Source: Candidatus Woesearchaeota archaeon
GTDB taxonomy: Archaea > Nanobdellota > Nanobdellia > Woesearchaeales > UBA11576
Direction: 5' to 3'
Assembly (NCBI GenBank): GCA_018668595.1
Contig: JABJCP010000009.1
Location: forward strand, 62,735 to 126,734
Length of the DNA: 64,000 nucleotides
A program made the translations under genes and the position numbers. This document shows positions 3,873-41,472 of the stretch, one piece after another; position 1 is the stretch's first letter; each line of letters starts with the position of its first letter. The notes beneath the pieces were generated by a model. The model worked only from the letters and a program-made list of their open reading frames with translations. It made no database searches and had not been told where the DNA came from.

Positions 3873-4010
3873 AACTCTATAGAAATGGTAATCTATTTTA
3901 TAAAACTTTTGAACAACTTTTTTAAAACAACAATATGTCCTGTTTATGTGACTAAAAAACAAGATTTTACCAAAAATAATATATACTAATTATACTTCTA
4001 AATAATAAAA

Positions 4011-12493: not shown

Positions 12494-15183
12494 AAGATGT
12501 TGAGAGAAATTTGGAAATAATAGTGGGAGATAACTTATTTGGGCGTCCGCATCAGTCAGAACATTTCACTTTTGAGTTTGAGGGAAAAACTTATCTTATT
12601 GCTGAAAAAAATTTATCAGATCCGGACGCAGTTTATTCTAAAGATGGACTCGCAAATTTATTTGGAACAGAGCATTATCAGATAGATGGAGTTATCAAAA
12701 CAAAAGATAAAACTTTGCTTAAAGTTAAACTGAGCTCTAAAGGTCCTGAATCCTTAGTTTCTAGCGATGGAAAAATGGATTGGTTTGGTTGTCCTCATCA
12801 AAAGTTATTTGAGATTATTACTGTGAGTGGTAAGGAATTTCTTTTAGCTATTCCCTCGGGAGAAGATCTAGAACGATTTTATGATATTACTGGCGAACCT
12901 GTTGATTTATTTGGAGGGCCACATGAAAGTGTGTTAGATATGTTCAAAATGGGTGATGAACCTTTTATTGTTGCAACAAAAGATGATCGAGATGCAGTAT
13001 ATTCCTCTGATGGAAAAAATAATTGGTTTGGCGGACCTCATTATCATATTTTTACACAGTTAAAAGAGATTGATGGAAAAAAATTTATCAAGGCACAGAA
13101 GGAAAAAGACGGTCCTGTTGCGATATACTCTTCTGATGGACAACTTCATTGGTTTAATGGTCCTTTTGGTAGAATATCTGGAGGAATAGTTTTTGTAGAT
13201 GGTCAACCTCTTTTAAAAGCGAGTCAGAGTACTTCTGGAAATTGTTTACTTTATACTTTAGAAGGAAGACCTAGTGGTCTTTTTGGTGGTCTTGAAAAAT
13301 ATTTTAATTGGCAATTTTTAGATTTTAATAATCTTGATTTTATTGTTGCTAAATTTGAAAAAAATGGAAAAGAGTATTTGGTTTCAAAAGAGTGCAAAAT
13401 AAATTTGTTTGGCGGACCGCACGAAAAAATACTTGGTTTACGAGATGTAGATAATCAAAATTATTTAGAAGTAATTAGAACTGAAAACAAAGCAATAAAC
13501 TATTTGATAAGTTCCGATGGTTTAGGTTTTACAAGTAAAGAAGATATTCTATGTTCTAATTTGGCTTCTGAGAAAAATTATAGTGATACTTATAAGCGTA
13601 TTTTAAGTTGGTTTAGAGAATTTAGTTCAGATATAGGTTTTATATCTAAAGAAATTGCTGATCTAATCGAACAAACTAATTTGTTGGATCATTCAAGAAG
13701 ATTATTTAATTTAACAGGAGAAGAACTTTTGAATGAGTTGGCAAAATCACCTGAAGATTTTATACTTGACGAGTCTGACAATAAAGAGGGTTTCAAAAAA
13801 GTTGAAGGTTATGAAGATTTAATAATGTTTAATAGAGTCGACTTATTTAAAGATTGGTTAAATTTAGTTATTGAATATTCTGATAATAAAACTGAGTCTT
13901 TAAGTTTAAAAGAGTCTATTTTAGCAATTCAAAGAATTCATTCCCAAGAAAGTCATGAACGGTTTGATGATTGTTTAAGTTATAATTTGAAATTACTTAG
14001 GCGTAATAGAAATAGTCTTGCTGAGATAACTGAATGTTCCAAATTAAGTTTTAATAATTATAATATATTAAAAAAACTTGGTCAAGGTGCTTTTAAGAAA
14101 GTTTATCTTGCAGAAGCAAAAGTAAGTCCTGGTCATTTTGTTGCTTTAAAGCAAATTGATCCTACTGCTTATTGGACTGATAGGATTCTTGAGCATTATG
14201 ATTCTGTTGATGATTGGGTTGGTGCAGAGCTTTCCATTAATCATCTTGCTAAGTTAAATTCTGATTTTGTGGCAAAGCCAGAAACTCCCTTCAAAGGAGA
14301 AGATGGTATTTTTTATTATGTTGAGCAGGCTTTCAAGGAAACGTTGAAAGATAAAGTTTCTCGAGAAGGAAAATGTGATTTATCTGAAGGATTAAAGATC
14401 GCTTTACAAATCGTAACTGGTTTAAGCGATTGTCATAATTATAAAAAACCTATTATTCATAAAGATTTAAAGCCTGATAATATTGGTCTTGATGAAAATG
14501 GAACTGTTAAGTTAACAGACTTTGGTAGTTTAGATTCTTTAAGTCATGATTTGTCTGATAGAGATTTATCAAATATTAACTACTCACCTGAAAAGGTTTT
14601 GAGAGGAGAAAAGAATGATGAAAAGACTAATATTTACTCAGTAGGTTTAGTTATGTTTTATGTTTTTACTGGAGACAACTTCTTTGATCCAGATAAAAAA
14701 GAAGATCGAAGAGAATATGTAAAAGGATTGTTACAATTAATAACTGAATATTCTAATTTATCTTGTGATGAAAAAGAAGATTTAATTAAAAAAAGTTTAG
14801 AGCATTTAGGAAGTAATGAAAAAGAAAAAGTATTTTATGCTTCGATTGGTAAAGTTATTCTGGCTTGTTTAGAAAGCGAATCTAAAGACTCTTATTTTAA
14901 TATGGAAGATGTGAGCACAGATCTTTCCAAATTAACTAATTATTTAGAAGGAAAATCAGAGGATAGTTCTGTTTTATGGGATAAATTCAGAGAACTTGAA
15001 CCATTTGGTTCTGAAGATAGTAAAGATAAAGACATTTTTGATGCATTTCTTGACGGAGAAGTAGAGCGTCAAAGACCTCTTGATGCATTAAGAAAATATA
15101 AAGGAGTTTTAGATGATTCTGATTACAGAACTATTGAAATAGCATTAAGCTTGTGCGAACATAATCAGCAGACTAAAAAGTAA
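12490..15183 (+). CDS. Ser/Thr protein kinase (eukaryotic-type) with an N-terminal ~45-aa 'FGGPH ... AVYSSDG' repeat domain (7-8 copies; beta-propeller-like)
   Basis: The Gly loop is LGQGAFKKVYLAE, the beta3 lysine is in FVALKQI, the catalytic loop is HKDLKPDNIG, DFG is present (KLTDFGS) and the APE-like motif is YSPE. Repeats include WFGCPHQKLF, LFGGPHESVL, WFGGPHYHIF and LFGGPHEKIL. Confidence 0.75.
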   Translation: MKDVERNLEIIVGDNLFGRPHQSEHFTFEFEGKTYLIAEKNLSDPDAVYSKDGLANLFGTEHYQIDGVIKTKDKTLLKVKLSSKGPESLVSSDGKMDWFGCPHQKLFEIITVSGKEFLLAIPSGEDLERFYDITGEPVDLFGGPHESVLDMFKMGDEPFIVATKDDRDAVYSSDGKNNWFGGPHYHIFTQLKEIDGKKFIKAQKEKDGPVAIYSSDGQLHWFNGPFGRISGGIVFVDGQPLLKASQSTSGNCLLYTLEGRPSGLFGGLEKYFNWQFLDFNNLDFIVAKFEKNGKEYLVSKECKINLFGGPHEKILGLRDVDNQNYLEVIRTENKAINYLISSDGLGFTSKEDILCSNLASEKNYSDTYKRILSWFREFSSDIGFISKEIADLIEQTNLLDHSRRLFNLTGEELLNELAKSPEDFILDESDNKEGFKKVEGYEDLIMFNRVDLFKDWLNLVIEYSDNKTESLSLKESILAIQRIHSQESHERFDDCLSYNLKLLRRNRNSLAEITECSKLSFNNYNILKKLGQGAFKKVYLAEAKVSPGHFVALKQIDPTAYWTDRILEHYDSVDDWVGAELSINHLAKLNSDFVAKPETPFKGEDGIFYYVEQAFKETLKDKVSREGKCDLSEGLKIALQIVTGLSDCHNYKKPIIHKDLKPDNIGLDENGTVKLTDFGSLDSLSHDLSDRDLSNINYSPEKVLRGEKNDEKTNIYSVGLVMFYVFTGDNFFDPDKKEDRREYVKGLLQLITEYSNLSCDEKEDLIKKSLEHLGSNEKEKVFYASIGKVILACLESESKDSYFNMEDVSTDLSKLTNYLEGKSEDSSVLWDKFRELEPFGSEDSKDKDIFDAFLDGEVERQRPLDALRKYKGVLDDSDYRTIEIALSLCEHNQQTKK

Positions 15184-15211
15184 AATTTGAAAAATATTTG
15201 AAACTAATAAA

Positions 15212-18118
15212 ATGAACACTAAACAAAAACTTTCAAAAGAGCAAAAAGAAAAAATCTTGGCTAAAGTAGAGAAAGCTAGGCGGGCAAAATTAGTTGATCG
15301 TCTATATGTTGATGGTATTTTTCATTTAAGTTCAGATGTAAGATCTAAAACTGCGGAGAGTTTAGGTGTTTTAGCAAGCATTAATGTGCGCGATTATGTG
15401 GATTTTTTTGAATTTAGTATAAAAAGTTCTAATTCGAGTGTGCAGGACAACGCTTCAAAAACTCTTGCTGATTTAGTTCATGTTGATAAAAATAAATTTC
15501 TTAAATTTTATGAGCGATTTATGTTTAAAAGAGGCTCACAGAGTATGGCCAAAACATTGAGTGAATTAGCAAAAGTTGATCCTTACAAATATTTCGAGTT
15601 ATGTGAAGAGGGAATGAATCATTCAAGCGATATGGGAAGAAGTTTTGTTGCAGTTGCATTAGGTGATATGGCTAAATTATTTCCTGATAAGTATATTGAA
15701 ATCTTTGAAAAGAATTTTGGTCGTGATCATGTATCAGGACCTTTAGTTAGTACTCTTGGCAATTTAGCGATTAATGATGAAAAGAAATATATTGAGTTTT
15801 ATAAACTAGCGATGAAAAATAAAAGTAAGTTTGTGAGGTGTAGTGCAGCTGAGACATTAGGTTCTTTAGCAAGTGTTAATCCTGAAAAATATGTTATGTT
15901 ATATTCTCTAGCAATAAATGATAAATCTGACTTTGTATTTACTGACGCAGCAAAAACATTGGGCAGTTTAGCAAAAGCAGATCTTAATTTGTATATTAAA
16001 TTGTTCAAAGAATGCATTAATAATAAAAAAGATCGCGTTAGAAAAGGTGTTGCTTTATCTCTTCGTTCATTATGTCCTGTTAATTATAGCGCGTATGTTG
16101 AATTGTTTGAATTAGGTATTGATAAAGGATTTAGTGTGGCAAGTTCTGTTGCAAGTACAATTGATTGTTTAGCAAATGCACAGTCTGAAGATATTTATGT
16201 TGAATTTTTAGACAAATGTTTGGATCATTCTGAAGAGGAAGTTAAAAGTAGTGCTTTAAGAACAGTAGGTAAATTAATTAATTCAAATCCTCAAACATAT
16301 TTCAAGTTACTCGAATCTGGTAATTATGCTGACTTTTTTAATTCTGATGCATTAGGTGTTTTTTTAATTAAATTAAGAGAAAAAGATCCTGAAATTTATT
16401 CTAAGCTACGTTCTAATTTAAGACAGGGTGTTGATTGGGGAGATGTTTTAGCAAGTATTTCGCCCAAACTATTTTTAGAAATGTATGATTCTAAGTACAA
16501 AATACATTCTCTTAATTCAAAAGTTAAGTTGAGTTCTTTAGCATTAACATTAACTGAAGAAAATTTGACCCCTATTAGAGATGAAGCTTACAAATTGTTT
16601 GAATCATATCTTGAGTCTAATTTTATTTTGACAGAAGATAGAACTCTTAAATCAGAAGAAGCAATTACTAAAGAATTGAAAGGTTTACTTTCTATTGAAA
16701 AATTGAATTATTTGAGGTTGACTGAAGTATTTAGGTCGAGTGATGTGAATTCAATGAATTTATTTGAAATAGATGATTTTAGTTTTCCAAATGCTAGAGA
16801 TCTTGATGAAATGGTCGAATGCGCACAGCGGTTTATTCCTAACTATTCAATTTTGTCAAGAGAATCCCGAGGAAGTTCAAAAATAGTTTACAAAGCAATT
16901 TATCAAAAACCAGGTTTTGATCCTGTCGAAGTTGCTCTGAAAATAGTAGATAGAACTGGTCTTCCTGATTCGTCTAATGTTGATGCATTAGTTGATCGTT
17001 TTGGTTTAGAAGATTTAACTAGGAAAGAAGTTAGCAAGTTGTTTAAATTAAATAAAAAAGGAATTGCCAGATTGATTGACTTTGGTAAACTTGCAGATGG
17101 AAAACTGTTTATTACAGAAGAGTTTATTCGAGGTAAAACTTTTAGAGAATATTTGGAAAAACGGGAAGAATTTAAATCTCTTTGCGATTTGTTAGATCAA
17201 AAGCGTTCTTCATTTTTTAATAAGTTTGTTAATGCAGAAATTGAATCTTTTGTTAATAATAATTTGACAGATTTTATTATGGGTATGAAACAGCAATTGT
17301 GTTTATCAAAATCGGATCATCAATATTTAAACCAATCTATTTTCAAAGGAAATCTTGTATTTTCTGATTCTAAGGTAGATAATTTTAAACCTAAAGATAG
17401 AGTTTGTTTATTATATTTACAGCTTTTCAGAGATTTAATAAATAATATTGAATATATTCAAGATTTAGGATTTATACATTTAGATATTAAACCAGAAAAC
17501 GTAATTATTAATCAAGATGTTTATTTAACAGATCTTCAAACAGTTATTGAAAAATTAAGGGCGAATGATTCGGTTAAAGGAGTTCATGGTTCAAGAAATT
17601 ATGCTATGCCTCAACTTATAGAAGGAGGCATTCCTGATTTTTCTGCAGATATTTATTCTCTTACAGTTATGTTGTTTGAAGCAATTACTGGAGAACTTCC
17701 TTATGATAAATATTCTTCAGATAAACAAGATAGTTTTCATAAAGAACGAATTGAACAATGGTCTGAGAAATCAAAATTAATTCATGAAAGATTTTCTTCA
17801 TTTAAAAATATTTTTAATAGAATGTTTGGAGAAGGGTCTTTTGGAACTTATTATGAATCAATAAATGAGTTTAAACAGGATTTTCAGCAAGCATTCAGTT
17901 CTATTTTTTTAAGTAATAATTACTTAATTGGAAATACTACTATGTTAGAGCAAGACATGAGATCAATTAACTTGTTAAGAAAAAAGTATGGTGCTAGAGA
18001 ATTAAGAGAAGTGCTTTTCGAAACTCAAGACATTCCTCTTACTGATGATGGATATTTTGATGAAATGGCAGGTTGTGAAACTGTAGATAATACTTTTGAT
18101 GATGAAGAATTTGAATGA
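15212..18118 (+). CDS. HEAT/PBS-lyase-like repeat protein fused to a degenerate protein-kinase domain (HLDIKPEN present, but DFG replaced by DLQ and the Gly loop degenerate)
   Basis: Repeats include ETLGSLASVNPEKYV and AKTLGSLAKADLNLYI. The kinase core reads HLDIKPENVIINQDVYLTDLQ. It is a paralog of 24239..26455 (shared YKAIYQKPGFDPxxVALKIVxRTxLPDSSNVD). Confidence 0.65.
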   Translation: MNTKQKLSKEQKEKILAKVEKARRAKLVDRLYVDGIFHLSSDVRSKTAESLGVLASINVRDYVDFFEFSIKSSNSSVQDNASKTLADLVHVDKNKFLKFYERFMFKRGSQSMAKTLSELAKVDPYKYFELCEEGMNHSSDMGRSFVAVALGDMAKLFPDKYIEIFEKNFGRDHVSGPLVSTLGNLAINDEKKYIEFYKLAMKNKSKFVRCSAAETLGSLASVNPEKYVMLYSLAINDKSDFVFTDAAKTLGSLAKADLNLYIKLFKECINNKKDRVRKGVALSLRSLCPVNYSAYVELFELGIDKGFSVASSVASTIDCLANAQSEDIYVEFLDKCLDHSEEEVKSSALRTVGKLINSNPQTYFKLLESGNYADFFNSDALGVFLIKLREKDPEIYSKLRSNLRQGVDWGDVLASISPKLFLEMYDSKYKIHSLNSKVKLSSLALTLTEENLTPIRDEAYKLFESYLESNFILTEDRTLKSEEAITKELKGLLSIEKLNYLRLTEVFRSSDVNSMNLFEIDDFSFPNARDLDEMVECAQRFIPNYSILSRESRGSSKIVYKAIYQKPGFDPVEVALKIVDRTGLPDSSNVDALVDRFGLEDLTRKEVSKLFKLNKKGIARLIDFGKLADGKLFITEEFIRGKTFREYLEKREEFKSLCDLLDQKRSSFFNKFVNAEIESFVNNNLTDFIMGMKQQLCLSKSDHQYLNQSIFKGNLVFSDSKVDNFKPKDRVCLLYLQLFRDLINNIEYIQDLGFIHLDIKPENVIINQDVYLTDLQTVIEKLRANDSVKGVHGSRNYAMPQLIEGGIPDFSADIYSLTVMLFEAITGELPYDKYSSDKQDSFHKERIEQWSEKSKLIHERFSSFKNIFNRMFGEGSFGTYYESINEFKQDFQQAFSSIFLSNNYLIGNTTMLEQDMRSINLLRKKYGARELREVLFETQDIPLTDDGYFDEMAGCETVDNTFDDEEFE

Positions 18119-18132
18119 ACTAAAAACAAAAA

Positions 18133-21100
18133 ATGAACATTGAAAAGATTTTAAACCAAGTTGAAAGAGAACGTCGAAAAATCTTAATCGGAGATATGTT
18201 TAGTTCTGGTCTTAGGGTTAAAGATCGTCATGCTAAAGAATCATTTGCAAACAAACTTCATAAACTTGCAGATATTGACTTGCCAAAATTTGTTGAACTT
18301 TACCAAAGAGAAATTAAAAAATTACATAGGGGTGGTTTGAATGATGTTTGTTGGGAGTTTAGTGTCAGTTCTAAAATCGCAAAGCAGCTTGGAGCATTAG
18401 TTAAAAGTGATATTGATCTTTATGAACAACTTTTCGAAGAAACTGTGAATAGAACGTATAAATTTCCAGACTCTAATCGAAAGGTTGCGACGGGGTGTAT
18501 TAGTACCTTGGAAACTGTTGCAGAAATAAATCAAGATCGATTTTTAGATATTTATCATGCTTGTCTTCATCAAGGTAATAAAAAAGTTAAGCAGAGCGCT
18601 TCATACTCAATAAAGCCTTTAGCAAAATTAAATCCTGAATTGTTTGAAGAGTTATTGACAGATCAAATATTAAATTACGGTTCGCAAGTTTTAGATTGGT
18701 CAATAGGTTTTTTACCGCGTCTAGCAGATATTAATATTGATAAAACTAAATATCTTTTAGAGCATTGTTTGAATTCAGAAAGTAAAAAATTAAAAAAATT
18801 TGCAGTTCTCGAACTTAATTCTTTAGCAGTTAAATTTCCAGAGTCATTTTCTCAACATTTGCTTGATGTTTTCAAAAATAAGTATGGTAAAGAAGTTCAT
18901 GAATCTGCATCAGTGAGTTCATTAGTAGAAGTAGCAGTACATTCAAATATTGATCCTGTTGCTTTTGCAATTAGTTGTTCTGATTTTGATACTGGAGAAG
19001 ATCCTTTAGGTTATCAGGTTAGAATGGAATTTATTAGTTATTTGTTCAAGGAAGATCCTAGAAAAACCTATGATTTGATAAAATATAAGTATGATCTTGA
19101 TAAAAACCTGGCAGATTTAATAAGTCGGTCAGCAAAAGACGATGATTTTGGTGCTGTTTTTAAAGATGAATTAAGCAGAAGAGATATTGATATTCTGGAT
19201 CCTGGCACTTCAAAAATCATTTTTGAAAATTTAGAGGGCATAATAGAACAAGATTCTCAGTTAGGTGTTGAACTTTTTAATTTCCTTGAAGAGAATGGTT
19301 CTGAAGATGTTAAAAAGAACTTATTTAATTATGTGCATCTTTTAATCGCATTTGATTTGGATAAATTCGAATCAGTTTTTAATCATACCCTTAATCAATC
19401 TACAAAAGAAACAAGTAATAGCATTTACTCTCATTTGGGTAAAGTTGCTGTTGTTAATACAGAAAAATATGTTGAACTTTATAAAAAAGCAACTTGCAAA
19501 ACTGTTGATCATTCTATTAGAATAGATATTATAGAAACTCTTGGTTCTCTTGCAAAAGTAGATCCTGATAAATATATTGAACTCTTTGAAGAGAACTTAA
19601 CGCGAGACCAATTTATTAGGTCCTCAACTTTCGAAACTCTTCACAATCTTGCAGATTCTCGACCAGAAAAGTATGTTGAACTTTGTGATATTGGTATGAG
19701 TGATAACTCTAGTTATGTTTATCGAGATACAATAAGATCTTTAAAACCATTAGCAAAAATTGATCCTGATAAATTCAAAAAATATGTTGTTGAAGGTTTT
19801 AATAGTAGAAAAACTGAAGTTGCGCCTTTTGCAGCAGAACTCATTCCTTTACTTGCACCTATTGATCCAAAACTATGCACAGAACTTGCAAAAAAAGCTT
19901 TAAGAAAAAAAGATTGGCAGATCAAGATAAAATCAGCAGATGCACTTGAAGCACTTGCAGATAATTATTTAGAAAATAAGATCCAGCATTTTAAAGATGA
20001 TTGTAATAAATTCATAAAAAAATATCTCCAATCAAAATATGTTCAAACAAAAGAGGGAGAAGATAGATCAGAACAAGACGTAACAGATGAACTAATTGAA
20101 TTGATACAAAAAAAAGATCTTGATTACAAATCAATGCTTGAATCTTTAGGGTATGAAAAAGCAGAAAATCTAGATGAACTAGTCGAACTTTCTAAAATTA
20201 AATTTGGTTCATATAAATTAATAAAAAAACTAGGCCAAGGTGCTTTCAAATCTGTTTATTTGGCAGAATCTACTTTGAGTTCAGGATTGTTTTTCGCTCT
20301 TAAAAAAATTAATCCGTCGCAATTTGGAGATGAACTAATAAGTCAGCATTATGATTCTTTTGAGGATTGGCTTGATGCTGAACTTCATATTACTAGACTT
20401 GCAATGGTTGATTCAAAATATGTTTCAAGACCTCAGCTTCCAAGAAAAGATGATGCTGGATTCTTTTACTTAACTGAGCAACCATTCAAAGAAAATTTAA
20501 AAGAAAAATTGCAAAATCAAAAAATCAATTTAATTGAGTCATTCAATTTAATTATTCAAATAGTTGAAGGGCTAGAAGATTGTCATAATTTTTACCAAGG
20601 TCCAATTATTCATAAGGATCTTAAACCAAGTAACATTGGAATAGATGAACTTGGACATATTAAACTTACTGATTTCGGTAGTTTAGAAACAATGAGTCGC
20701 GATCTTAGCGACGGAGATCTTTCAAATATTCTTTATTCTGCTCCTGAGGTTTTACAAGGAGAAAAAACAACCATTAAAAGCAATATTTGGACTGTTTGTA
20801 ATTTAATGTATAATATTCTAACGGGCGATGATTTGTTTGCTCCTGAAAATAATTCAAAACCTAAATCTACAGATGAAAACAGAGAAACATATGCGAAAAT
20901 TTCTTTAGAAAAAATGATGAAAACTTCAGAACTTGGTGTTAAAGACAAAGTCGTTTTTTTAAGAGATAAACTTTGCGAAAACTATAATCAAGAGTCTGTT
21001 GAATATAGAACATTAACTATTCTTGCAGGAGTTATTGCAGGAGGACTTTTTGAAAATCCTGAAGAAAGAGTTTACAATTCTATGACTGAATTAAAAACTG

Positions 21101-21423
21101 ATTTACTTCACACTTTAACTTTTTATGAAACTAATCCTGAACAAGAACATTATCCTAAATTGCAAGTTGATCGTCATGAAGAATGGTTTGGTCTTTCAGA
21201 TGAAGAACTTTCGCGACTTAATGAAAATAAAAATCCTGCAACAGGAATAAATTATCATGATTCTGTAAAAGAACTAGTGAATCTAAGAGAGAAAAATCCG
21301 TTGTTTGTGATTGGTAAATACAAGCAGTCAATGTCTGATGAAGATTATAACTTGTTAGAAACAAGATTAAAGCGATTATTAAATTATGAAGCACCTTTTG
21401 GTGTTGTAGGTGAGGATGATTAA
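18133..21423 (+). CDS. HEAT-like repeat protein fused to a Ser/Thr protein kinase (appears active)
   Basis: LGQGAFKSVYLAE, FFALKKI, HKDLKPSNIGIDELGHIKLTDFGS and YSAPE are all present. It is a paralog of 12490..15183. Confidence 0.75.
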   Translation: MNIEKILNQVERERRKILIGDMFSSGLRVKDRHAKESFANKLHKLADIDLPKFVELYQREIKKLHRGGLNDVCWEFSVSSKIAKQLGALVKSDIDLYEQLFEETVNRTYKFPDSNRKVATGCISTLETVAEINQDRFLDIYHACLHQGNKKVKQSASYSIKPLAKLNPELFEELLTDQILNYGSQVLDWSIGFLPRLADINIDKTKYLLEHCLNSESKKLKKFAVLELNSLAVKFPESFSQHLLDVFKNKYGKEVHESASVSSLVEVAVHSNIDPVAFAISCSDFDTGEDPLGYQVRMEFISYLFKEDPRKTYDLIKYKYDLDKNLADLISRSAKDDDFGAVFKDELSRRDIDILDPGTSKIIFENLEGIIEQDSQLGVELFNFLEENGSEDVKKNLFNYVHLLIAFDLDKFESVFNHTLNQSTKETSNSIYSHLGKVAVVNTEKYVELYKKATCKTVDHSIRIDIIETLGSLAKVDPDKYIELFEENLTRDQFIRSSTFETLHNLADSRPEKYVELCDIGMSDNSSYVYRDTIRSLKPLAKIDPDKFKKYVVEGFNSRKTEVAPFAAELIPLLAPIDPKLCTELAKKALRKKDWQIKIKSADALEALADNYLENKIQHFKDDCNKFIKKYLQSKYVQTKEGEDRSEQDVTDELIELIQKKDLDYKSMLESLGYEKAENLDELVELSKIKFGSYKLIKKLGQGAFKSVYLAESTLSSGLFFALKKINPSQFGDELISQHYDSFEDWLDAELHITRLAMVDSKYVSRPQLPRKDDAGFFYLTEQPFKENLKEKLQNQKINLIESFNLIIQIVEGLEDCHNFYQGPIIHKDLKPSNIGIDELGHIKLTDFGSLETMSRDLSDGDLSNILYSAPEVLQGEKTTIKSNIWTVCNLMYNILTGDDLFAPENNSKPKSTDENRETYAKISLEKMMKTSELGVKDKVVFLRDKLCENYNQESVEYRTLTILAGVIAGGLFENPEERVYNSMTELKTDLLHTLTFYETNPEQEHYPKLQVDRHEEWFGLSDEELSRLNENKNPATGINYHDSVKELVNLREKNPLFVIGKYKQSMSDEDYNLLETRLKRLLNYEAPFGVVGEDD

Positions 21424-24189
21424 ATGACCAAAAAAACAAATTCAACAACCAATCAAGATTTAATGAATCTCCTCCTGCCTATTTTTGAAGAGTTTGATCT
21501 AATTAGAGAATCATCTGATTTTTATTTGACCACTAAAAAAAATTTAAATAAATATATTTCTGAACAGAAAGCAAGAGTAGCATTTACTTTTAATTTTCCT
21601 GAAATCGCAATTAATTGTTTGGATGATTATTTATCTACTTTAAATATTGATTCTATCGATTCATTTGATTTGCATAGTGTTGTGGATTATGCAGGTTATT
21701 GTATTGAACTAAATAAACTAAAAAAAGCAGAGCCTTATGTTGTTTTACTTGCAGATAAATTAAATTTGTTAACAAATAATGGGAACTTCAAAGTAGCATT
21801 ATCTTTTTTAAATAATTTAAATGAAGAAAAATTAAATATTTTATCTAATTTTAACTTTTCTGAGTTAATTTCAAATCAAATAGATTTAATGCCTTTGGGC
21901 ATCACAAAATCAGAATATTATTCATCCGAATCATTTTTTAATTTGCTTTATAATATGGATAAATTTGATAAATTATTATGTGAAACCAAATCGCTTGATG
22001 ATAAAATTTCTGATTTAGAGAAATCAGAAAATTTAAATTATTATTTTAGTTTAAGAATACTTCAAGCAAAACAGTATATGCGATTAAATTTAAATGATGA
22101 GTTCAAAGAAATTATCTCGGATTTAGAACTTAAATCAGCTGGTTTTTCAAATAAATTTTCAGATAGAAGTCATTTTGATTTTTTAAGTGTTATAAAATTA
22201 AAAAAAACTTTTGATGTTGATTATGATTGTAGAACTGATATTTTATCAGTTGTAGATTTAGTTAAAGATAATTATGAAGATGTTGATGATTATTGGCATA
22301 TTTCATCATTTTTTGAAGAAATTGTGAATTTAACCAGGAGTGAGTTTCCTGAGTTTGCAAAAAATGTTTTTAATAATTTTTTAAATTCTGGGCCTGAGAA
22401 ATATTTTGGACATATAAAAAAAGAACTAGATAAAGCTAAAGGATTAACTAATTTTTTATGGAAATGTCGTGATTATTTAGGCAAGGAGTATAGCTTAGAA
22501 AAAATTAATTTTATTAATTCTATTTTATTAAATAAAGATATTTTATTTAATCAATCTTATTTAAAATTTGCATGTAAAATTAGTCATGAATTGGGGTTAG
22601 AACATGATTTCAATAATCATTTAACCGAATTAAATAAATTGATGCGTTATCCTAAAGAAGAGTTTGATATGAGCAAAAAACTTGTTGCAGAAAATTTAAG
22701 ATATGAAACATTAAATGATCTGGCAGATATTTTTAAAGCAAGATCTGATTTTAATCAGGCATCTAATGCTTATCGAGAGTTAATTAATTTGTATAAATTA
22801 AAAATTGATTTTACAAAGAAAGACTTTAGTCGTAATTGGCACAAAGATGACAATCAAAGAAAATTTGATGAATTATCTATTAAATTGAAAAAATTAAAAA
22901 TGAATTATTCTAATAAATTTTCTAAACATCAACTTAGTAATTGGAACAAGGAAGTGAATAGAACACAAGACCAAATTAATAATTTGAAACAAATTAATGC
23001 ACATATTTCTATTAATTTAAAAGCATTTAATTCAATGGATTTAATTAGGTCTTTACATTTTACTTATTTGCGTAATGCAGAATGTTTGTTAGCTTCTAAT
23101 AATATTAATGCTGCTGTTGAATCATATTTGGAAATGAAAAATTTGTTTTACTCTTGGAGTGTTAAAGAAGAAACTGCTGCATTTTGGATTGGAACAAGAG
23201 CAGTATTACTTTCAAAAATATTTAAAACGACAGAAGATCTTCCATCATTAAACTTCATGCTGGACAACAACATAGTTCTCGAGGGTTACACAATTACAAA
23301 AAAACTCGGCAAAGGTGCTTTCTCTGATGTTTATTTAGGAAAAAATGTAGTCGATGAAATGGACGAAGCTGTCAAAATAATTCAAATTTCTGATTTTGGT
23401 AAACAACTTATTGAAGAATCAGGCATGACACAGGAACAATTTATAAGTAAAGAACTTCAAGTCAGAAAACTTAATTCTTTAAGAAGTCATAATATTGTTT
23501 TATATCATAATGTTGCAAAAGTAAAAGATAAGGTTGTTATTTTTATGGAACCTTTTGAGATGACATTAGAAACTGCACTGATTGAAAATAATCTTACTTA
23601 TTTTGAAAAGGTTAACTGTTTTGCAGACATTGCAGCTACATTAACTGAGTGTTATGATAAATTGGGAATTATTCATAAGGATTTGAAGCCGGTTAACGCA
23701 GGTTTGGATTCTAATAAAGAAATAAAGCTTACTGATTTTGGTAGTATTGATTCTTTTTCTGCAAAAAATTATTCTGATTTAAGTAATATTGAATATCGTG
23801 CTCCTGAAATTTGGGAGGGTGAAAAAGCAACTTTTTCGTCGAGTATTTGGGCGATGGGCGGTATTTTTTTCAGAATGCTTACAGACAAAAAACTGTTTGA
23901 GCCAGATAATTTAGATAAAAACAAAGATCGTAAAGAGTACGAAACTTATTTTAAGAATAGAGATTGGCAAAGCTTAGAAGAGCAAGATTCTAAATATATA
24001 GCAGATTCAATGATTCATCCTAATGTTAGATTTATTCCGGGCAGTGTTTATGCTGATATTACTTTTATGATTCAAACTTGTTTAACCTATGATCCTAAAA
24101 AAAGAGAAGATAGATTTAGAGCGTTTTTAGATTATTTCAATGAAACCTATGATATAAATGAGTTATTGAACTTAGAAAATACTAATTAA
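21424..24189 (+). CDS. Helical-repeat (TPR-like) protein fused to a Ser/Thr protein kinase
   Basis: LGKGAFSDVYLGK, HKDLKPVNAGLDSNKEIKLTDFGS and YRAPE are present. The start abuts the preceding stop (TAAATG). Confidence 0.7.
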   Translation: MTKKTNSTTNQDLMNLLLPIFEEFDLIRESSDFYLTTKKNLNKYISEQKARVAFTFNFPEIAINCLDDYLSTLNIDSIDSFDLHSVVDYAGYCIELNKLKKAEPYVVLLADKLNLLTNNGNFKVALSFLNNLNEEKLNILSNFNFSELISNQIDLMPLGITKSEYYSSESFFNLLYNMDKFDKLLCETKSLDDKISDLEKSENLNYYFSLRILQAKQYMRLNLNDEFKEIISDLELKSAGFSNKFSDRSHFDFLSVIKLKKTFDVDYDCRTDILSVVDLVKDNYEDVDDYWHISSFFEEIVNLTRSEFPEFAKNVFNNFLNSGPEKYFGHIKKELDKAKGLTNFLWKCRDYLGKEYSLEKINFINSILLNKDILFNQSYLKFACKISHELGLEHDFNNHLTELNKLMRYPKEEFDMSKKLVAENLRYETLNDLADIFKARSDFNQASNAYRELINLYKLKIDFTKKDFSRNWHKDDNQRKFDELSIKLKKLKMNYSNKFSKHQLSNWNKEVNRTQDQINNLKQINAHISINLKAFNSMDLIRSLHFTYLRNAECLLASNNINAAVESYLEMKNLFYSWSVKEETAAFWIGTRAVLLSKIFKTTEDLPSLNFMLDNNIVLEGYTITKKLGKGAFSDVYLGKNVVDEMDEAVKIIQISDFGKQLIEESGMTQEQFISKELQVRKLNSLRSHNIVLYHNVAKVKDKVVIFMEPFEMTLETALIENNLTYFEKVNCFADIAATLTECYDKLGIIHKDLKPVNAGLDSNKEIKLTDFGSIDSFSAKNYSDLSNIEYRAPEIWEGEKATFSSSIWAMGGIFFRMLTDKKLFEPDNLDKNKDRKEYETYFKNRDWQSLEEQDSKYIADSMIHPNVRFIPGSVYADITFMIQTCLTYDPKKREDRFRAFLDYFNETYDINELLNLENTN

Positions 24190-24238
24190 TGATTATTTAA
24201 TATTAAAAAATGATTAAAAAAAATTAAATAACTAAAAA

Positions 24239-26455
24239 ATGACAGAAGAAAATAAAAAAAATAACTCCAAAAAAGATTCAAGTAGAGATTTTAAACTTTC
24301 AAATCCTATTAAAAACATTCAAGATTTAAAAAATGAATCTAAAGAACTTAAATATTTAATAAAACATTTTGAAGAATTTAATCTTGATAAACCCGAATTA
24401 GAAGATTATGTTGTCAAAGTTTTAGATTCTAATGCGAGTATTTTAACTAAGAATATTTTAATAGAAGGAGATATTGATAAAAATTTAGTTGATGTAGTGA
24501 ATGATTCTAAGTTATTGTCTAATTTCTTAAAAAAGTTTGAACAATACTCTTTATTTTTTAGAGATAAGTTAGATCTACAATATGGGTTTAGAATTTCAAC
24601 AACTAAAGAATGGGGGGAATCATTAGAGCAGTTAGGTGTGGTTTTAACTGCAGATAATGAGATTAATTTTAAGAAGGAAGGATATGTGTCTAATGTTGCA
24701 CATAAACAATTTTTAGTTAATCTTAGAGATGATATTATTTCCAACCCAGAAACACTAGATTCTGATTATTATGGTTTGTTTAATGAGTTAATAAGAAAAT
24801 CTCATAATAAAGAGAGAATAGAGGACAGAGCATTACATTCTCTTTATTATTTAGGGGTAGACTTTGATTCAAAATACTCTTTGGAAAAAATTACTGATTT
24901 GTTACTTGGTTATAAAGATCATGAGATTTTAAAAAAATTTGGACAATCAGATGTCGCGTATAGTCCACCCGTGCTCGATCAAGTATTTAGGAAAATTATT
25001 AAATATATAAAACAAGGAGACTGTAATTCAATTAATGATTGTATTGAATGTGCTTCAATTAACATTTCCAACTACCAATTAATCTCAAAAATAGCAGAAG
25101 GTACTTCGAAGCGAGTCTACAAAGCTATTTACCAAAAACCAGGTTTCGATCCTATCACAGTTGCATTAAAGATCGTCAATAGAACTGATTTGCCTGATTC
25201 ATCTAATGTTGATAATCTTATTCAACGTTTTGGTTTGGAGGATATTACAAAAGGGGAAATTAATGCCATGTTGAAAACAAAAAATCCTTCTGTAGCTTCT
25301 ATTTATGATTTTGGAAAAACTAACAAAGGTAAACTGTACATTGCAGAAGAGTTTGTTGAAGGTGTTAGTTTAAGAGATGTAATAAATCAAAGACCTGTTC
25401 TTGAATCTGTTTTTAATAATTTATTTTCAATGAGTATTTCTGATGAAGAATTAGATTCAGGAAGGATAGATCTATCTGATCTTTTGCCAGATTCTTTTAA
25501 TTCGATTGAAGAAGAAAAATTAGTTGTGTCTGCGAAAGAAAAAAATTGCAGCAGATCTGAATTAAAAGATAAACTGCTTACTAAAAAACAAAATTTATAT
25601 TCTCAACGAGCATTATCCAATACTCGTTTTTCATCAAAATTTACATTTTCTAAAGAGAAATCAATTATGCGATATGTTGTCAAAGATGGAATTGTTTCTG
25701 AAGAAGACTATTTGACAAAAATTCCTGAGGATTTGGCAAGACTCAGTTTTTATTTTTCATTATTTGAAAAAATTTTAAAATCAGTCTATAAATTACATGA
25801 AGATAATTTAGTTCATTTAGATATTAAACCTGAAAATATAATTATAGGGGATGTTGTTAAATTGACTGATTTTCAAACTGCAGGTATTTTAGAAGATTTT
25901 TATGTTTCTGGTGCAAAAGGCGTGCATGGTTCAAAGCAGTATGCAGGTCCTGAATTGTTTTGGGATTCGAGTCCAGGAATACATTCAGATATTTATTCGT
26001 TAGGTATTATTTTTTATGAACTTCTTACGGGAGAACTTCCTTTTGGACCATATGATTCGAGAGAAAAAGCAAAAAAAGATCATGAATTAAATCATGAAGA
26101 TAATTTAGAAAAAGCTCTTGATAAATTAAACTTTTACAAGTCTGATGAAGTTAAATTTCTTTTTGAAAAAGTTTTGACTGATGATTCGACGAGTAGATAT
26201 GATTTAATGTCTACTTTTATTAGTCATTTTAATATGGTTCAGAATAGTTTATTTCAGGATTTTAGAGTGGATGTTGAAGGAATTCCTGTATTTGATGAAG
26301 ATTTGATAACATTATTTGAATTAAGACGTAAGTATGGTTTTGATGACCTTAATAAAATATTAAAATACACCAAGCATTTAGATATGACTGATCATGTACC
26401 TCTGCATGAGCCATCAGGAGGGGTTGATTATGGTGATTGGGATGATGAAGAATAA
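24239..26455 (+). CDS. Protein-kinase-like protein (HLDIKPEN present; DFG replaced by DFQ)
   Basis: The core reads HLDIKPENIIIGDVVKLTDFQTAG. It has an acidic C-terminus (DYGDWDDEE) and is a paralog of 15212..18118. Confidence 0.65.
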   Translation: MTEENKKNNSKKDSSRDFKLSNPIKNIQDLKNESKELKYLIKHFEEFNLDKPELEDYVVKVLDSNASILTKNILIEGDIDKNLVDVVNDSKLLSNFLKKFEQYSLFFRDKLDLQYGFRISTTKEWGESLEQLGVVLTADNEINFKKEGYVSNVAHKQFLVNLRDDIISNPETLDSDYYGLFNELIRKSHNKERIEDRALHSLYYLGVDFDSKYSLEKITDLLLGYKDHEILKKFGQSDVAYSPPVLDQVFRKIIKYIKQGDCNSINDCIECASINISNYQLISKIAEGTSKRVYKAIYQKPGFDPITVALKIVNRTDLPDSSNVDNLIQRFGLEDITKGEINAMLKTKNPSVASIYDFGKTNKGKLYIAEEFVEGVSLRDVINQRPVLESVFNNLFSMSISDEELDSGRIDLSDLLPDSFNSIEEEKLVVSAKEKNCSRSELKDKLLTKKQNLYSQRALSNTRFSSKFTFSKEKSIMRYVVKDGIVSEEDYLTKIPEDLARLSFYFSLFEKILKSVYKLHEDNLVHLDIKPENIIIGDVVKLTDFQTAGILEDFYVSGAKGVHGSKQYAGPELFWDSSPGIHSDIYSLGIIFYELLTGELPFGPYDSREKAKKDHELNHEDNLEKALDKLNFYKSDEVKFLFEKVLTDDSTSRYDLMSTFISHFNMVQNSLFQDFRVDVEGIPVFDEDLITLFELRRKYGFDDLNKILKYTKHLDMTDHVPLHEPSGGVDYGDWDDEE

Positions 26456-28284: not shown

Positions 28285-28493
28285 TTTTTTTCTTCCCTTG
28301 TTTGGTTAATTGAATTAAATTATGTTGATTTTGTATTATATCCGTATTTAATCGTAAATCTTACATTATTATGCAGCACTACTATATAAATTTTTCTAAA
28401 TTATATAGGATTAACAAAACTATAGAGTTATAGAGTCATCTATAGAGTCTACACCAAAGATATATATCGATATTCCGTCATATGTAGAAGATA

Positions 28494-28551
28494 TTCCGAA
28501 AACATCTGAAAATAATTCAGAAAAGAGGGAGATAATCGTTGGTTTTCGGAA
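28494..28551. promoter_or_regulatory. 10-bp perfect inverted repeat (TTCCGAAAAC ... GTTTTCGGAA, 38-bp spacer) ending at the SD of the Lrp gene; three TATAGAGT direct repeats lie just upstream (about 28421-28455)
   Basis: Read directly from the sequence. Confidence 0.35.
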
Positions 28552-28566
28552 ATGGAGGGGCATAAA

Positions 28567-29049
28567 ATGAATATGGACAATAATCAAAAATTAAATCAAA
28601 AAGACTTGAAAATTATTGCACACCTAAGAAATGATGCGAGAATGCCATTAACAAAGATGAGCAAGAAAGTTCAAATTCCAGTATCCACTATATTTGACAG
28701 ATTAAAAGCAAATGAAAATAAGCTAATAATAAAACACACAAGTCTATTGGATTTTTCAAGGTTGGGATATCATACTAGAGCAAATATTGCAGTAAAAGTA
28801 AATAAAGAACATAAAGAAGAATTGAAAAATTATTTAGTAACACACCAGAATACAAATTCAGTATATAAGATCAATAACGGTTTTGACTTTATGATTGAAG
28901 GAATATTCACGCACATTAAAGATATGGAAGAATTCATAGACGAGCTCGAAAATAAGTTTAATATTGAAGATAAAAAATTTTTCTTTATAATCGAGGACTT
29001 AAAAAAAGAAGCATTCATGAGCAATCCTGATATGTTGTGGGGAAATTAA
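28567..29049 (+). CDS. Lrp/AsnC-family transcriptional regulator
   Basis: QKDLKIIAHLRNDARMPLTKMSKKVQIPVSTIFDRLK is an Lrp HTH. The track ATG (28552) is inside the SD (GGAGGGG), so the start at 28567 is preferred. Confidence 0.55.
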   Translation: MNMDNNQKLNQKDLKIIAHLRNDARMPLTKMSKKVQIPVSTIFDRLKANENKLIIKHTSLLDFSRLGYHTRANIAVKVNKEHKEELKNYLVTHQNTNSVYKINNGFDFMIEGIFTHIKDMEEFIDELENKFNIEDKKFFFIIEDLKKEAFMSNPDMLWGN

Positions 29050-29137
29050 AATAAAATATTGGCTGTATAAAAAAATATAAGAACTTGATATCTGTAACTG
29101 CCAATTACAAGAACAACAGCACTACCTTGGCATACAT

Positions 29138-29264
29138 TTGAACACGTAGTGTTCAATTTTGTCGAGCGTAGCTCGATGTTGTCAGTAACTTGTTACTGAT
29201 GTAATGCAGAAAAATGCCTGATTCATACAAGGTATTTTTCGATAAATCAAATTCATAGAATTTG
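29138..29264. promoter_or_regulatory. Cluster of four perfect palindromes/hairpins in a 350-bp intergenic region (candidate structured ncRNA or regulator-binding array)
   Basis: The four palindromes are TTGAACACgtaGTGTTCAA (29138-29156), TCGAGCgtaGCTCGA (29162-29176), CAGTAACttGTTACTG (29183-29198) and ATCAAATTCataGAATTTGAT (29246-29266). Local GC is higher than in the flanks. Confidence 0.35.
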
Positions 29265-29397
29265 ATAAATTGCCGTAGTGCTGAAAAAAGAAAAAATAAA
29301 CTGAGTTTCTATAATTATTATTCGATTTTTATATCTCCGAAAAAATAACAATCCAACCACACAAATCTTTATAAAATAAACTACGAATTCTAAAAAC

Positions 29398-30117
29398 ATG
29401 GTAATTCAAAAAAGACTAATAGGTCATGCAACTGGTAATTTTCATTTATTCGATCTAACTCTGGACGAAAAAATACAACAAATAAAAGAGCTAGGCTGTA
29501 ACTGTACTGAGTTTACTTTTGCAACAAAAGAAGATCTTGATCAAGCATTACTTAGTTTGGATAGTTCTGAGTTCATTAAAACACTAGATTATGTTTCTGT
29601 TCATGCACCATTTAGATTTGAATATGGAAAAAATGATGAGACTTATACTTTACTAAATAAGTTGTTTTATTTTTCAGAATTAGTTCAAGCATCACATATA
29701 ACAATTCATCATAACTTAATCCAGGATGATTGGGTTGTAGATAAATTATTAAATTCAGGGATCAAAACCAGTTTTGAAAATTTAAAAAAAGGAAATCCTT
29801 ATACTATGAGTGATTACTTTCAAATTCTAAAACAAAATCCAGGAGTAGGTTTGGTTTTTGACGCAGGTCATGCACTTACTTATTCAGAAAATTATCTTAA
29901 AGAGTTTTTAACCAAACTAAAACCAACAAATAAATTAGATCAATTCCATATTAGTGATTGCTATGGTGGAAAACCTCATCGGCCAATAAAGAATCCTAAT
30001 TTTTTAAATCATCTAAAAGAATTTGATGTTCCTTTTATTATTGAATCAAAATATTCTCCAGATGAAAAAGATGTATTAAAAAAAGATTTAGATATAGTGA
30101 GAATGTATTTGTCTTAA
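29398..30117 (+). CDS. Xylose-isomerase-like TIM-barrel (sugar phosphate isomerase/epimerase or AP endonuclease 2 family) protein
   Basis: Candidate metal-ligand stretches are VSVHAPF, ITIHHN and FDAGHA. Confidence 0.35.
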   Translation: MVIQKRLIGHATGNFHLFDLTLDEKIQQIKELGCNCTEFTFATKEDLDQALLSLDSSEFIKTLDYVSVHAPFRFEYGKNDETYTLLNKLFYFSELVQASHITIHHNLIQDDWVVDKLLNSGIKTSFENLKKGNPYTMSDYFQILKQNPGVGLVFDAGHALTYSENYLKEFLTKLKPTNKLDQFHISDCYGGKPHRPIKNPNFLNHLKEFDVPFIIESKYSPDEKDVLKKDLDIVRMYLS

Positions 30118-30151
30118 GAAAAAGATTTAAAAAAATTAAATGTTAAAATAT

Positions 30152-31399
30152 TCAAAGATCATATTCTTGTTTATTTTCTCCAATAACTTTGTCTGCTAGG
30201 TTTTTACTCATCCATTTCCAAGCAGGAATAACATTTATATCATTCAATTTGTCTTCTTGAGCGAATGTAATTATTAACCCATTTTCTATTTTGAATTTTC
30301 TCATAGTTTCATATAATCCATTTAGTTCTCTTTCTTTGTTTTCTTCGGTAAGTTCATAACAGACTTGTATTGCTTGAATGAGTTTTCCGTTTTCTTTAAT
30401 TATAAAATCACATTCATGTCGATTTCTATAGTAAAATATTTCTTTGTATTTTCGTCTTAATTCTATAAAAATTAAATTTTCTAATAATCTTCCTTTATCT
30501 GAGGAAAATGAAGCAGTATTGGCTCTTGCAAATCCTAAATCTATGCAAAATATTTTTTTAGGATTAATCATTTGTTTTTTTAGCGAATAATCAAATCGCG
30601 GTATTGTAAAAAATAAATAACTATCTTCAAAAAATGAAATATATGAACTAACTGTGTTTGTCGAACCTAGATTTAATATTTTGGCAAGATTATTGTACGA
30701 ATATTCCTTTCCTATATTTGTTATTAAATACGTAGCAAGTTCTTTGAGTTTTTTCGTATCTTTTATTTTATGTCTTACAATTATATCTCTTGTTAGAACA
30801 TCTTTGAACAGTTCTTGTAATAATTCTGTTTTTGGTTTTTCAAGAAACTCTGGAAACCCACCTAGTTCAAAATATTTTTCAAATGTTTTTAGTGATGGTT
30901 TTAGTTTCAAAAATTGTAGCATTTCTTTATACGAAAATGGGAATAGTTCGTGAGAGATTTGTCTTCCGGTTAATTTAGTTCCAAGTTCTCTGCTTAGCAA
31001 TGATGCATTAGATCCTGTTAAAAATATTTTCCCCCCCTGATCTAATTTTTGCCTTACAAATCGTTCCCAACCTTCAACATTTTGTATTTCATCAAAAAAG
31101 TAGAATTCGAGATCTTTATTTAGTTCATTAAGCACTTCATCTAATTTTTCAAAATCAGTCAGTTCAAATTTAAAAATTCTTGGATCTTCAAAATTAAAAT
31201 AAGCCTTGTTTTTTACTGTTTTCATTAACTGTCTTAATACAGTACTTTTTCCACACCTTCGTATTCCTGTAATTATATTGGCATGTTTTATGTCAAAATC
31301 TATTTTTTGATTTAAATCCCGTTTAATACCTGTTTCTAGCTGTTTTAACTCTTCCTTTTGTTTAACTACTGTTTTTTTTATTGTTTCTTTTAATATCAT
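30152..31399 (-). CDS. AAA-superfamily ATPase of the AAA_14/DUF4143 type
   Basis: Walker A is GIRRCGKST and Walker B is FYFFDEIQ. The family is common in archaea. Confidence 0.5.
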   Translation of the reverse strand: MILKETIKKTVVKQKEELKQLETGIKRDLNQKIDFDIKHANIITGIRRCGKSTVLRQLMKTVKNKAYFNFEDPRIFKFELTDFEKLDEVLNELNKDLEFYFFDEIQNVEGWERFVRQKLDQGGKIFLTGSNASLLSRELGTKLTGRQISHELFPFSYKEMLQFLKLKPSLKTFEKYFELGGFPEFLEKPKTELLQELFKDVLTRDIIVRHKIKDTKKLKELATYLITNIGKEYSYNNLAKILNLGSTNTVSSYISFFEDSYLFFTIPRFDYSLKKQMINPKKIFCIDLGFARANTASFSSDKGRLLENLIFIELRRKYKEIFYYRNRHECDFIIKENGKLIQAIQVCYELTEENKERELNGLYETMRKFKIENGLIITFAQEDKLNDINVIPAWKWMSKNLADKVIGENKQEYDL

Positions 31400-40359: not shown

Positions 40360-41472
40360 ATGGTAGATCCATCTTTGTTAGATGAAATTTTATTAATTCA
40401 TAACGCACTTGTTAAAGCTAGATTTCCTGAAAATGTGTTTGGAGAATTGAAAGCTTCAGAAAAAACAGATCAAGAAAGAGAACTAAAAACTACGTATAGA
40501 ACAATTCTAAAAAAAATTCATCCTGATAAATATGCACAAATTGAGCAGGCAAGTTATTTAGCACAAGAAGCAACATCGCTTGTCAACAATTTATACGAAA
40601 AAGCAAAAGCAAAAATAAATTCAAATTCTTATGGAGAAATTTTAAATGACAAATCAAGTTTTGGTGATGCAACTTCAATCGAAACAACTTTTGACTTAAA
40701 TGATTATTGTTATGAATTACTAAAAGATCCTGTGCAGGGAGATTTTTGTGATGTTTTTTTTGGAGTGCGAGAAAATGATTCAGGTCTTGAACATATTTGT
40801 TTCAAAGTTGTAGAAGATAAAAGCAATAATAGTTTACTTGAACGAGAAAAAGAAATTCTAACGTCAATTACCCATAAATCAATTCCAATTTTTCTTGATT
40901 CAGCCATACTTGAAGATGATAGACAAGCAAATATTCTCAGACGTGTAGAAGGAAGTTATGATTTGTATGAAGTTAAAGACCAATTTCCTGACGGAGTACC
41001 TCAAGAGCATGCAGTTTGGATTTTAGACAGATTACTTAGTGTTCTTGGTTACTTACACACAAATAAAATTATTCATGGAAGTATTGAACCGGGAAATATC
41101 TTAATTACTCCTCATAACCATAATGGATTTCTTATAGATTACACTTTAGGAATTAAAGAAGCAACAAAAACCAATTCAAAATATTTCGGAACAAATGATT
41201 ATAGTGCACCTGAAATTGAAAAAGGAGAATCACCTCATCCCTCATCTGACTTGTATTCTTTAGGAAAATCAATCATTTTTCTAATGGGTGGAAATAACAC
41301 AACGCCACTCGCGAACATTGATCCAAAATTAAATTCATACTTAGCAAATTTTGTAACAGAAGATCCATCGAGGAGAACTAATGATGCTTGGAAAGCATGG
41401 CATGAGCTAAAACAATTAAGAAAAGAGGTATTTGGAGCAGAGAATCAATTTTTAGAGCTTTGCTTAGATTAA
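40360..41472 (+). CDS. J-domain fused to a degenerate protein-kinase-like domain (pseudokinase)
   Basis: The J domain is YRTILKKIHPDKYA. The kinase-like core reads HGSIEPGNILI...LIDYTLG with an APE-like SAPE. Confidence 0.55.
   Translation: MVDPSLLDEILLIHNALVKARFPENVFGELKASEKTDQERELKTTYRTILKKIHPDKYAQIEQASYLAQEATSLVNNLYEKAKAKINSNSYGEILNDKSSFGDATSIETTFDLNDYCYELLKDPVQGDFCDVFFGVRENDSGLEHICFKVVEDKSNNSLLEREKEILTSITHKSIPIFLDSAILEDDRQANILRRVEGSYDLYEVKDQFPDGVPQEHAVWILDRLLSVLGYLHTNKIIHGSIEPGNILITPHNHNGFLIDYTLGIKEATKTNSKYFGTNDYSAPEIEKGESPHPSSDLYSLGKSIIFLMGGNNTTPLANIDPKLNSYLANFVTEDPSRRTNDAWKAWHELKQLRKEVFGAENQFLELCLD

Follow-up and report, generated by a model that had tools for sequence, protein, structure and literature searches.

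Gene content and layout of the locus

The window, by which we mean the whole 64-kb stretch of Woesearchaeota DNA that was analysed, carries on its plus strand a gene for an Lrp/AsnC regulator (lrp, 28552–29049; Pfam HTH_AsnC-type and AsnC_trans_reg). It is followed by an intergenic region of 348 bp (29050–29397) and, downstream, by genes for a TIM-barrel protein and a DUF4143 ATPase (opposite strand). The upstream Lrp has hundreds of relatives, including many orthologues at 60–77% identity. For the downstream 239-aa protein essentially no relatives were found, and it is regarded as an orphan. The element described here begins 67 nt behind lrp, which itself lies outside the RNA.

An earlier note on this DNA had described four perfect palindromes packed into a GC-enriched part of an intergenic region of about 350 bp, and each of these points was confirmed. 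The first palindrome, TTGAACAC-GTA-GTGTTCAA, spans 29138–29156. The second, TCGAGC-GTA-GCTCGA, occupies 29162–29176, and a basal G-U pair lengthens its stem to 29161–29177. The third, TCAGTAAC-TT-GTTACTGA, lies at 29182–29199, where the physical structure is a 7-bp stem capped by a CUUG loop, and the fourth, ATCAAATTC-ATA-GAATTTGAT, covers 29246–29266. The GC content of 29117–29283 is 0.365; the remainder of the spacer has 0.21–0.24, and the window as a whole 0.294.

Two further features of the window were recorded. A tandem array of five large (738–1096 aa) eukaryote-type Ser/Thr kinases extends from 12490 to 26455, with a sixth at 40360–41472; Pfam Pkinase matches four of the six, and the genes at 18133–21423 and 21424–24189 were assigned from their HKDLKP motifs. 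The kinase at 15212–18118 carries N-terminal HEAT repeats. On the minus strand (2823–3962), a response-regulator receiver is fused to a GGDEF diguanylate cyclase, here in a DPANN archaeon.

Dyad symmetry and predicted fold

The density of dyad symmetry had been put far above the background of AT-rich DNA. This stood for G/C-containing arms and for fold energy, but not for the raw number of palindromes. In first-order Markov simulations of the window, at least four perfect 6-bp hairpins per 130 nt were common (137 of 150 simulations), and three non-overlapping hairpins of at least 7 bp per 130 nt appeared in 39 of 300 (13%). The raw count was thus discarded as a statistic, being not significant alone in AT-rich sequence. 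When at least two G/C per arm were also required, the latter number fell to 0 of 300.

RNAfold gave one clean six-way junction for the plus strand, with a minimum free energy of −63.8 kcal/mol (z = −6.75). In a comparison with shuffled sequences, none of 200 was as stable. The minus strand reached −54.8 kcal/mol, so that the plus strand is 9 kcal/mol more stable. Across all 180-nt segments of the 64 kb on both strands, stability peaks at the element region (−55.3 kcal/mol; mean −27.4, standard deviation 6.5), and its fold under DNA parameters is also exceptional (z = −6.08).

The predicted architecture consists of a terminal helix of 9–10 bp, a conserved CUU bulge and a 4-bp helix leading into the six-way junction, from which five short, near-perfect hairpins emerge. 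All parts are given on the plus strand. The 5' strand of the terminal helix P1, CAGCACUAC (29117–29125), pairs with GUAGUGCUG (29275–29283). The 3-nt CUU bulge (29126–29128) separates P1 from P2, in which GGCA (29129–29132) pairs with UGCC (29271–29274), so that the 3' strands of both helices together fill 29271–29283. Hairpin H1 (29138–29156) has 8 bp and a GUA triloop closed by C-G. H2 (29161–29177) has 7 bp, including the basal G-U, and likewise a GUA triloop. H3 (29181–29200) is made up of a G-U and 7 bp below the CUUG loop, and is followed by the conserved linker J3/4, GUAAUGCA (29201–29208). H4 (29209–29240) has 11 bp, including one G-U, and carries a conserved 10-nt loop, GAUUCAUACA, with the family consensus GAUUCWURCA. 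H5 (29246–29266) has 9 bp, an AUA triloop and the invariant apex UUCAUAGAA.

The helices are bordered by a conserved 5' flank, AUUACAAGAACAA (29104–29116), and by an A-rich 3' tail, AAAAAAGAAAAAA (29284–29296). The first T5 run downstream of the RNA (29326–29330) is a candidate archaeal terminator of an lrp-RNA transcript. The extent first assigned to the feature, 29138–29266, thus holds the four palindromes but not the full element, whose helices span 29117–29283 and are bordered by the conserved flanks. The fifth hairpin (H4) and the long-range stem that encloses all five hairpins had been overlooked.

Diverged homologues and covariation

A metagenome collection was scanned with a bait consisting of only the two closing-stem strands at the right spacing. 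The search pattern fixed the length of the 4-bp helix and left the bulge as NNN. The scan returned three matches only (L147, L148 and L149), on contigs of 128, 13 and 52 kb from JGI sample 3300025660, and their interiors all differ. The L148 contig is labelled Candidatus Woesearchaeota at NCBI. The three homologues are 180–181 nt long, and pairwise identity among all four sequences is 67–70% outside the forced columns. Folded singly, each adopts the same closing stem and five hairpins (z = −7.5, −7.2 and −4.75).

The earlier note had suggested a multi-hairpin small RNA and had proposed covariation in related genomes as a check on it. This reading was supported: the three diverged homologues keep all hairpins by compensatory substitutions. 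RNAalifold reported 12 compensatory pairs among the four sequences. In the covariance-model alignment of the same four, 15 pairs changed on both sides, spread over all five hairpins: three in H1 (in L147), three in H2, three in H3, four in H4, where the loop was kept, and two in H5. None of 500 shuffles reached 15. Standard pairs fill 96.4% of the pair cells of this alignment, compared with 33–45% when the partners are slid by 1–3 columns. Seven cells hold G-U and none holds A-C, which identifies the plus strand as the folding strand and points to a molecule that is single-stranded. The alignment comprises four distinct sequences, which share a single marine setting.

That the closing stem is invariant is an artefact, because this was imposed by the search pattern. 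Conservation at the closing region that is free of the pattern comprises the CUU bulge, identical in all four sequences although it was left as NNN, an extra G-C pair, and the flanks AAUUACAAC.AC on the 5' side and CAAAAAAUAA on the 3' side. The 5' flank is kept in three of the four sequences and partly in L147, and CAAAAAAUAA occurs in two homologues. Sequence, and not only pairing, is conserved in the single-stranded linkers and loops, in the H4 loop GAUUCAUGCA and in the H5 apex. J2/3, J3/4 and the H4 loop each contain one copy of a motif UGAU..UG(C/U)CA (UGAUUC..UGCA). In L147–L149, H3 is longer and ends in a purine-rich apex, GAGC-AWA-GCGA, possibly with tandem G-A pairs. The window has the CUUG tetraloop in place of this apex, and the H3 tip appears dispensable.

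On the evidence of these alignments, the fold is kept by compensatory substitutions in four populations that are taken to be Woesearchaeota, and the structure is under purifying selection. Strain-level copies were identical in sequence (five further contigs from the population of the window, and nine loci from that of L148) and therefore provide no covariation information. An identical locus is also present on the NCBI MAG GCA_018671815.1. The element occurs once per contig (128, 52 and 13 kb) and once in the 64-kb window. For the L148 population, two assemblies made independently stop within the RNA, at model positions 180 (L186, 2578–2760) and 93 (L187, 2578–2673). These ends may be assembly breaks at a sequence common to co-occurring species, or possibly real ends.

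Genes adjoining the four loci

The genes upstream of the RNA are co-directional with it in all four loci, and the gap between gene and RNA measures 30–67 nt and contains no run of four or more T. Apart from lrp in the window (gap 67 nt), they encode a 178-aa HTH protein in L147 (54 nt), a 179-aa protein in L148 (49 nt), an orphan by an orthologue search, and a 278-aa membrane protein in L149 (30 nt). Downstream lie a DUF4143 ATPase fragment on the opposite strand (L147), a Cas4-like PD-(D/E)XK nuclease (L148) and small pilin-like proteins (L149). No orthologous gene common to the four loci was found, and no neighbouring gene recurs in all of them. The sole homologous protein pair, about 33–35% identical, joins the window and L147 and consists of AAA_14/DUF4143 ATPases. 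The RNA is an autonomous module that is not tied to its upstream gene; its single downstream link is the AAA_14/DUF4143 gene, in two of the four loci.

Neither the 79 GTDB lrp loci nor nine closer metagenomic lrp loci carry the element. In orthologues without the RNA (L143, L144 and L085), a T5–T8 run follows right after the stop codon; the lrp of the window has none before the RNA.

At three loci out of the four (window 29398–31399, L147 1329–2111 and L148 5409–6236), genes just behind the RNA were matched by PADLOC profiles for defence candidates or Cas4. The profiles are PDC-M70B (E = 2.6e-13), PDC-S01 (E = 2.4e-117 and 1.4e-48) and a Cas4/DruK-like nuclease. The RNA may thus border variable or defence islands, or the association may be a coincidence. 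We treat it as a lead only, because families such as the DUF4143 ATPases are abundant.

Upstream of lrp, in the divergent spacer, a third exact copy of the closing-stem 9-mer CAGCACTAC was observed on the plus strand at 28374–28382, beside TATATAAA. By a base-composition estimate, about 0.004 copies are expected within 1 kb. The upstream regions of lrp orthologues do not conserve this 9-mer, and its reading as an Lrp operator was rejected for this reason. In the same spacer, between an abrB-like gene and lrp, TATAGAGT is present as three direct copies and GATATTCCG as two (28421–28448 and 28469–28498), all of them candidate operator sites.

Comparison with known RNA families and elements

At the gathering threshold, Rfam 15 gave no match in the window or in L147–L149. 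Lax scans returned chance-level matches only (SNORD72, E = 1.3; SNORD50, E = 0.14; tmRNA, 8.5 bits). ARAGORN found no tRNA or tmRNA genes in the window, and inspection showed no T-arm/D-arm layout. For tRNA, 5S, SRP and RNase P there was no model match, and by inspection none of their universal motifs was present. Scans of viral contigs with four patterns gave chance-level matches, none of which was confirmed by nhmmer, and BLAST against phages and plasmids gave no match. In the literature, the closing-stem sequence was not found in any paper of the library searched.

The weak Rfam matches raised the possibility of a C/D box sRNA. In such RNAs, a C box (RUGAUGA) close to the 5' end and a D box (CUGA) close to the 3' end form a K-turn next to a short terminal stem, and C'/D' boxes and guides of about 12 nt are further features. 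Here the 5' end has no C box, the only similar sequence is an internal UGAUGU half buried in H3, and the 3' CUGA is paired inside P1. H/ACA sRNAs contain a pseudouridylation pocket within a hairpin, a K-turn or K-loop, and an ACA box at the 3' end; the hairpins of the present RNA are perfect, with no internal pocket, and its A-rich 3' tail contains no conserved ACA. Both assignments were rejected.

Retron ncRNA, omega-RNA and bridge RNA were set aside as well, as no reverse transcriptase, TnpB/IscB or IS110 recombinase was found among the window ORFs of at least 250 aa. The neighbours of the loci include Lrp, the TIM-barrel protein, DUF4143 ATPase, Cas4-like nuclease and small membrane proteins. 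Archaeal replication origins combine ORB repeats around an AT-rich unwinding element with an adjacent orc1/cdc6 gene and a skew switch. The origin-like element that had been suggested did not hold up against this pattern: the element is GC-enriched, no ORB-type repeats are present, no Orc1/Cdc6 was found among the neighbours scanned, and the cumulative GC skew climbs steadily through 29 kb without a switch.

Judged from these comparisons, the element is best read as a previously undescribed structured RNA family of marine Woesearchaeota.

Proposed expression and role

The interpretation that we favour, with a probability of roughly 0.55, is that 29117–29283, together with about 13 conserved nt on each side, represents a structured non-coding RNA of about 170 nt (180 in the relatives) that would be made by read-through and would bind protein in trans. 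Read-through from the upstream gene is probable because the RNA lies 30–67 nt behind a co-directional stop codon in all four loci, with no oligo-T terminator between them. The RNA would thus be 3'-UTR-derived, and the arrangement by which 3'-UTR-derived sRNAs are recognised, a co-directional ORF with no terminator before the RNA, was found at each of the four loci. In the homologues, T4–T6 runs follow 20–60 nt downstream of the RNA. A plausible TATA-like box can be seen in L148 and L149, about 25–30 nt ahead of the stem, whereas L147 shows none; given these boxes, an own promoter instead of read-through is possible.

Once transcribed, the RNA would be protected from exonucleases by the terminal helix (14 bp), leaving a nuclease-resistant product. 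The conserved linkers and loops, namely the thrice-repeated motif, the H4 loop and the H5 apex, may then serve as recognition sites held out by rigid arms. A role in trans, as a protein-binding scaffold or a sequestering RNA, is proposed as most likely because these linkers and loops are conserved in sequence and are taken as recognition sites. A stable, trans-acting, protein-binding RNA is our guess from these features.

Alternative explanations

The same position behind genes could also reflect a cassette acting in cis. Such an element would be portable, possibly a low-copy, MITE-like unit with terminal inverted repeats of 9–10 bp, that lands behind genes, is co-transcribed with them and either blocks 3'-to-5' decay or defines the 3' end of the mRNA. 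The inverted repeats are present, the upstream genes are mutually unrelated, and the element always sits 30–67 nt behind a co-directional stop with no terminator between. At orthologous lrp loci it is absent, and these have their own oligo-T terminator. However, a single copy per contig of 52–128 kb and per 64-kb window falls short of the many copies per genome of MITE- or REP-like elements, no target-site duplication is visible, and no transposase, integrase or TnpB was found among the window ORFs of at least 250 aa. The flanks are themselves conserved between loci, conserved sequence reaches beyond the inverted repeats, and five compensated hairpins with conserved loops and linkers exceed the needs of a decay block. 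We consider this explanation unlikely, and the trans-acting RNA is preferred.

The closing region also raises the possibility of an excised RNA. Cleavage there by the splicing endonuclease would free a core of about 145 nt with the five hairpins, open to circularisation by RtcB, and a 10-bp hairpin would stay on the 3' end of the mRNA. For this endonuclease, a motif of two 3-nt bulges on opposite strands, separated by a 4-bp helix, has been described, in whose relaxed form a loop can replace one bulge (PMC6379350). The CUU bulge, the 4-bp helix and the junction loop fit this relaxed bulge-helix-loop definition, with the length of the helix fixed by the search pattern, so that conservation of the helix is weightless, although the bulge was free in the pattern and is kept in all four sequences. 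Broad-specificity endonucleases are found in DPANN archaea, of the epsilon2 type in ARMAN-2 (PMC5829648, PMC12397907), and archaeal circular RNAs from such motifs are known (PMC3326292, PMC7714728). Nevertheless, the second 3-nt bulge and the second flanking helix are missing, and by inspection at most 2 bp are possible beyond the 4-bp helix. Excision is accordingly a doubtful reading of the locus.

An extended form of the proposal would unite several of these leads. The RNA would then represent a new class specific to marine Woesearchaeota (DPANN), cut from the 3' ends of unrelated mRNAs at the conserved bulge-helix-loop. It would persist, possibly in circular form, as a particle built on the six-way junction, with a protein partner of its own. 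It would maybe be linked to the downstream defence-candidate genes (PDC-S01 ATPase, PDC-M70B and Cas4-like nuclease; three of the four loci). As a whole, this is speculative and improbable.

A single-stranded DNA element, such as a transposon end, an attachment site or the single-strand origin of an integrated element, is very improbable. Stable DNA hairpins classically carry C-(GNA)-G and C-(ANA)-G triloops, and the C-GNA-G type is present here, together with the exceptional fold under DNA parameters and downstream genes that are lineage-specific and match defence-candidate profiles. Even so, no HUH/Y1 transposase, Rep, integrase or reverse transcriptase was found nearby, and the long conserved single-stranded loops are typical of RNA. 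The element is located on large chromosomal contigs (up to about 640–680 kb in the window's population) and has no counterpart in the phage, plasmid and viral collections.

Sites in double-stranded DNA, whether operators of Lrp or other regulators, a cruciform or the replication origin discussed above, are largely refuted and scarcely credible: the element adjoins an Lrp/AsnC gene with the third copy of CAGCACTAC upstream at 28374, but the operator array suggested earlier finds no common half-site consensus in five palindromes with five unrelated arm sequences, the stems change sequence yet stay paired and covary through G-U pairs that would be mismatches in duplex DNA, the homologues adjoin unrelated upstream genes in mostly different neighbourhoods, 88 lrp orthologue loci have neither the element downstream nor the 9-mer, and the GC skew shows no switch at 29 kb.

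Significance and relation to known systems

DPANN archaea are uncultivated and their genomes are reduced; apart from rRNA and tRNA, hardly any of their RNA repertoire has been explored. A covariation-backed RNA of 170–180 nt with a six-way junction and no Rfam relative is a concrete new object that can be searched for by covariance model. Finding it behind unrelated genes leads one to ask by what route such an RNA gene moves or gets expressed, and the bulge-helix-loop geometry leads to a specific processing hypothesis that is directly testable. The novelty lies in an RNA family with a narrow known distribution and not in a demonstrated new mechanism. We regard its interest for RNA and DPANN biology as moderate to high, within the limits set by narrow sampling.

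The nearest known systems share single traits with this RNA. MITE and REP elements are alike in their terminal inverted repeats (9–10 bp here), their length of about 170 bp and their intergenic position behind genes, and the cassette reading would resemble bacterial REP/BIME or Correia elements. The present element differs in its single copy per contig, in the lack of a visible target-site duplication, in its structure-keeping covariation and in its conserved loops. Substrates of the archaeal splicing endonuclease, of the bulge-helix-bulge and bulge-helix-loop type (tRNA introns, rRNA processing stems and circular sRNAs), likewise surround a structured RNA with a long helix that leads through a 3-nt bulge into a 4-bp helix and a loop, but this RNA, a possible substrate, has no second bulge and no second helix. 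Sequestering RNAs of the CsrB/RsmZ type expose a repeated single-stranded motif in stem-loops and linkers, as the threefold UGAUUC..UGCA does here. The resemblance is functional only, since motif, domain of life and architecture differ: the present RNA is a closed junction, whereas CsrB/RsmZ form a string of hairpins.

A likeness in position is offered by 3'-UTR-derived sRNAs, which also lie right behind a co-directional ORF with no terminator between, and whose stable structure could survive processing. Classical examples are tied to one gene, whereas the genes in front of this RNA are mutually unrelated in the four genomes. Hgc RNAs of Methanocaldococcus and Pyrococcus, and the RNA motifs with no assigned function that comparative genomics has delivered, are alike in being GC-enriched folded islands in AT-rich archaeal spacers with covariation support. 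Compared with these, the present RNA stands apart by its lack of an Rfam match, by a six-way junction with five short perfect arms, and by a distribution that so far covers only marine Woesearchaeota.
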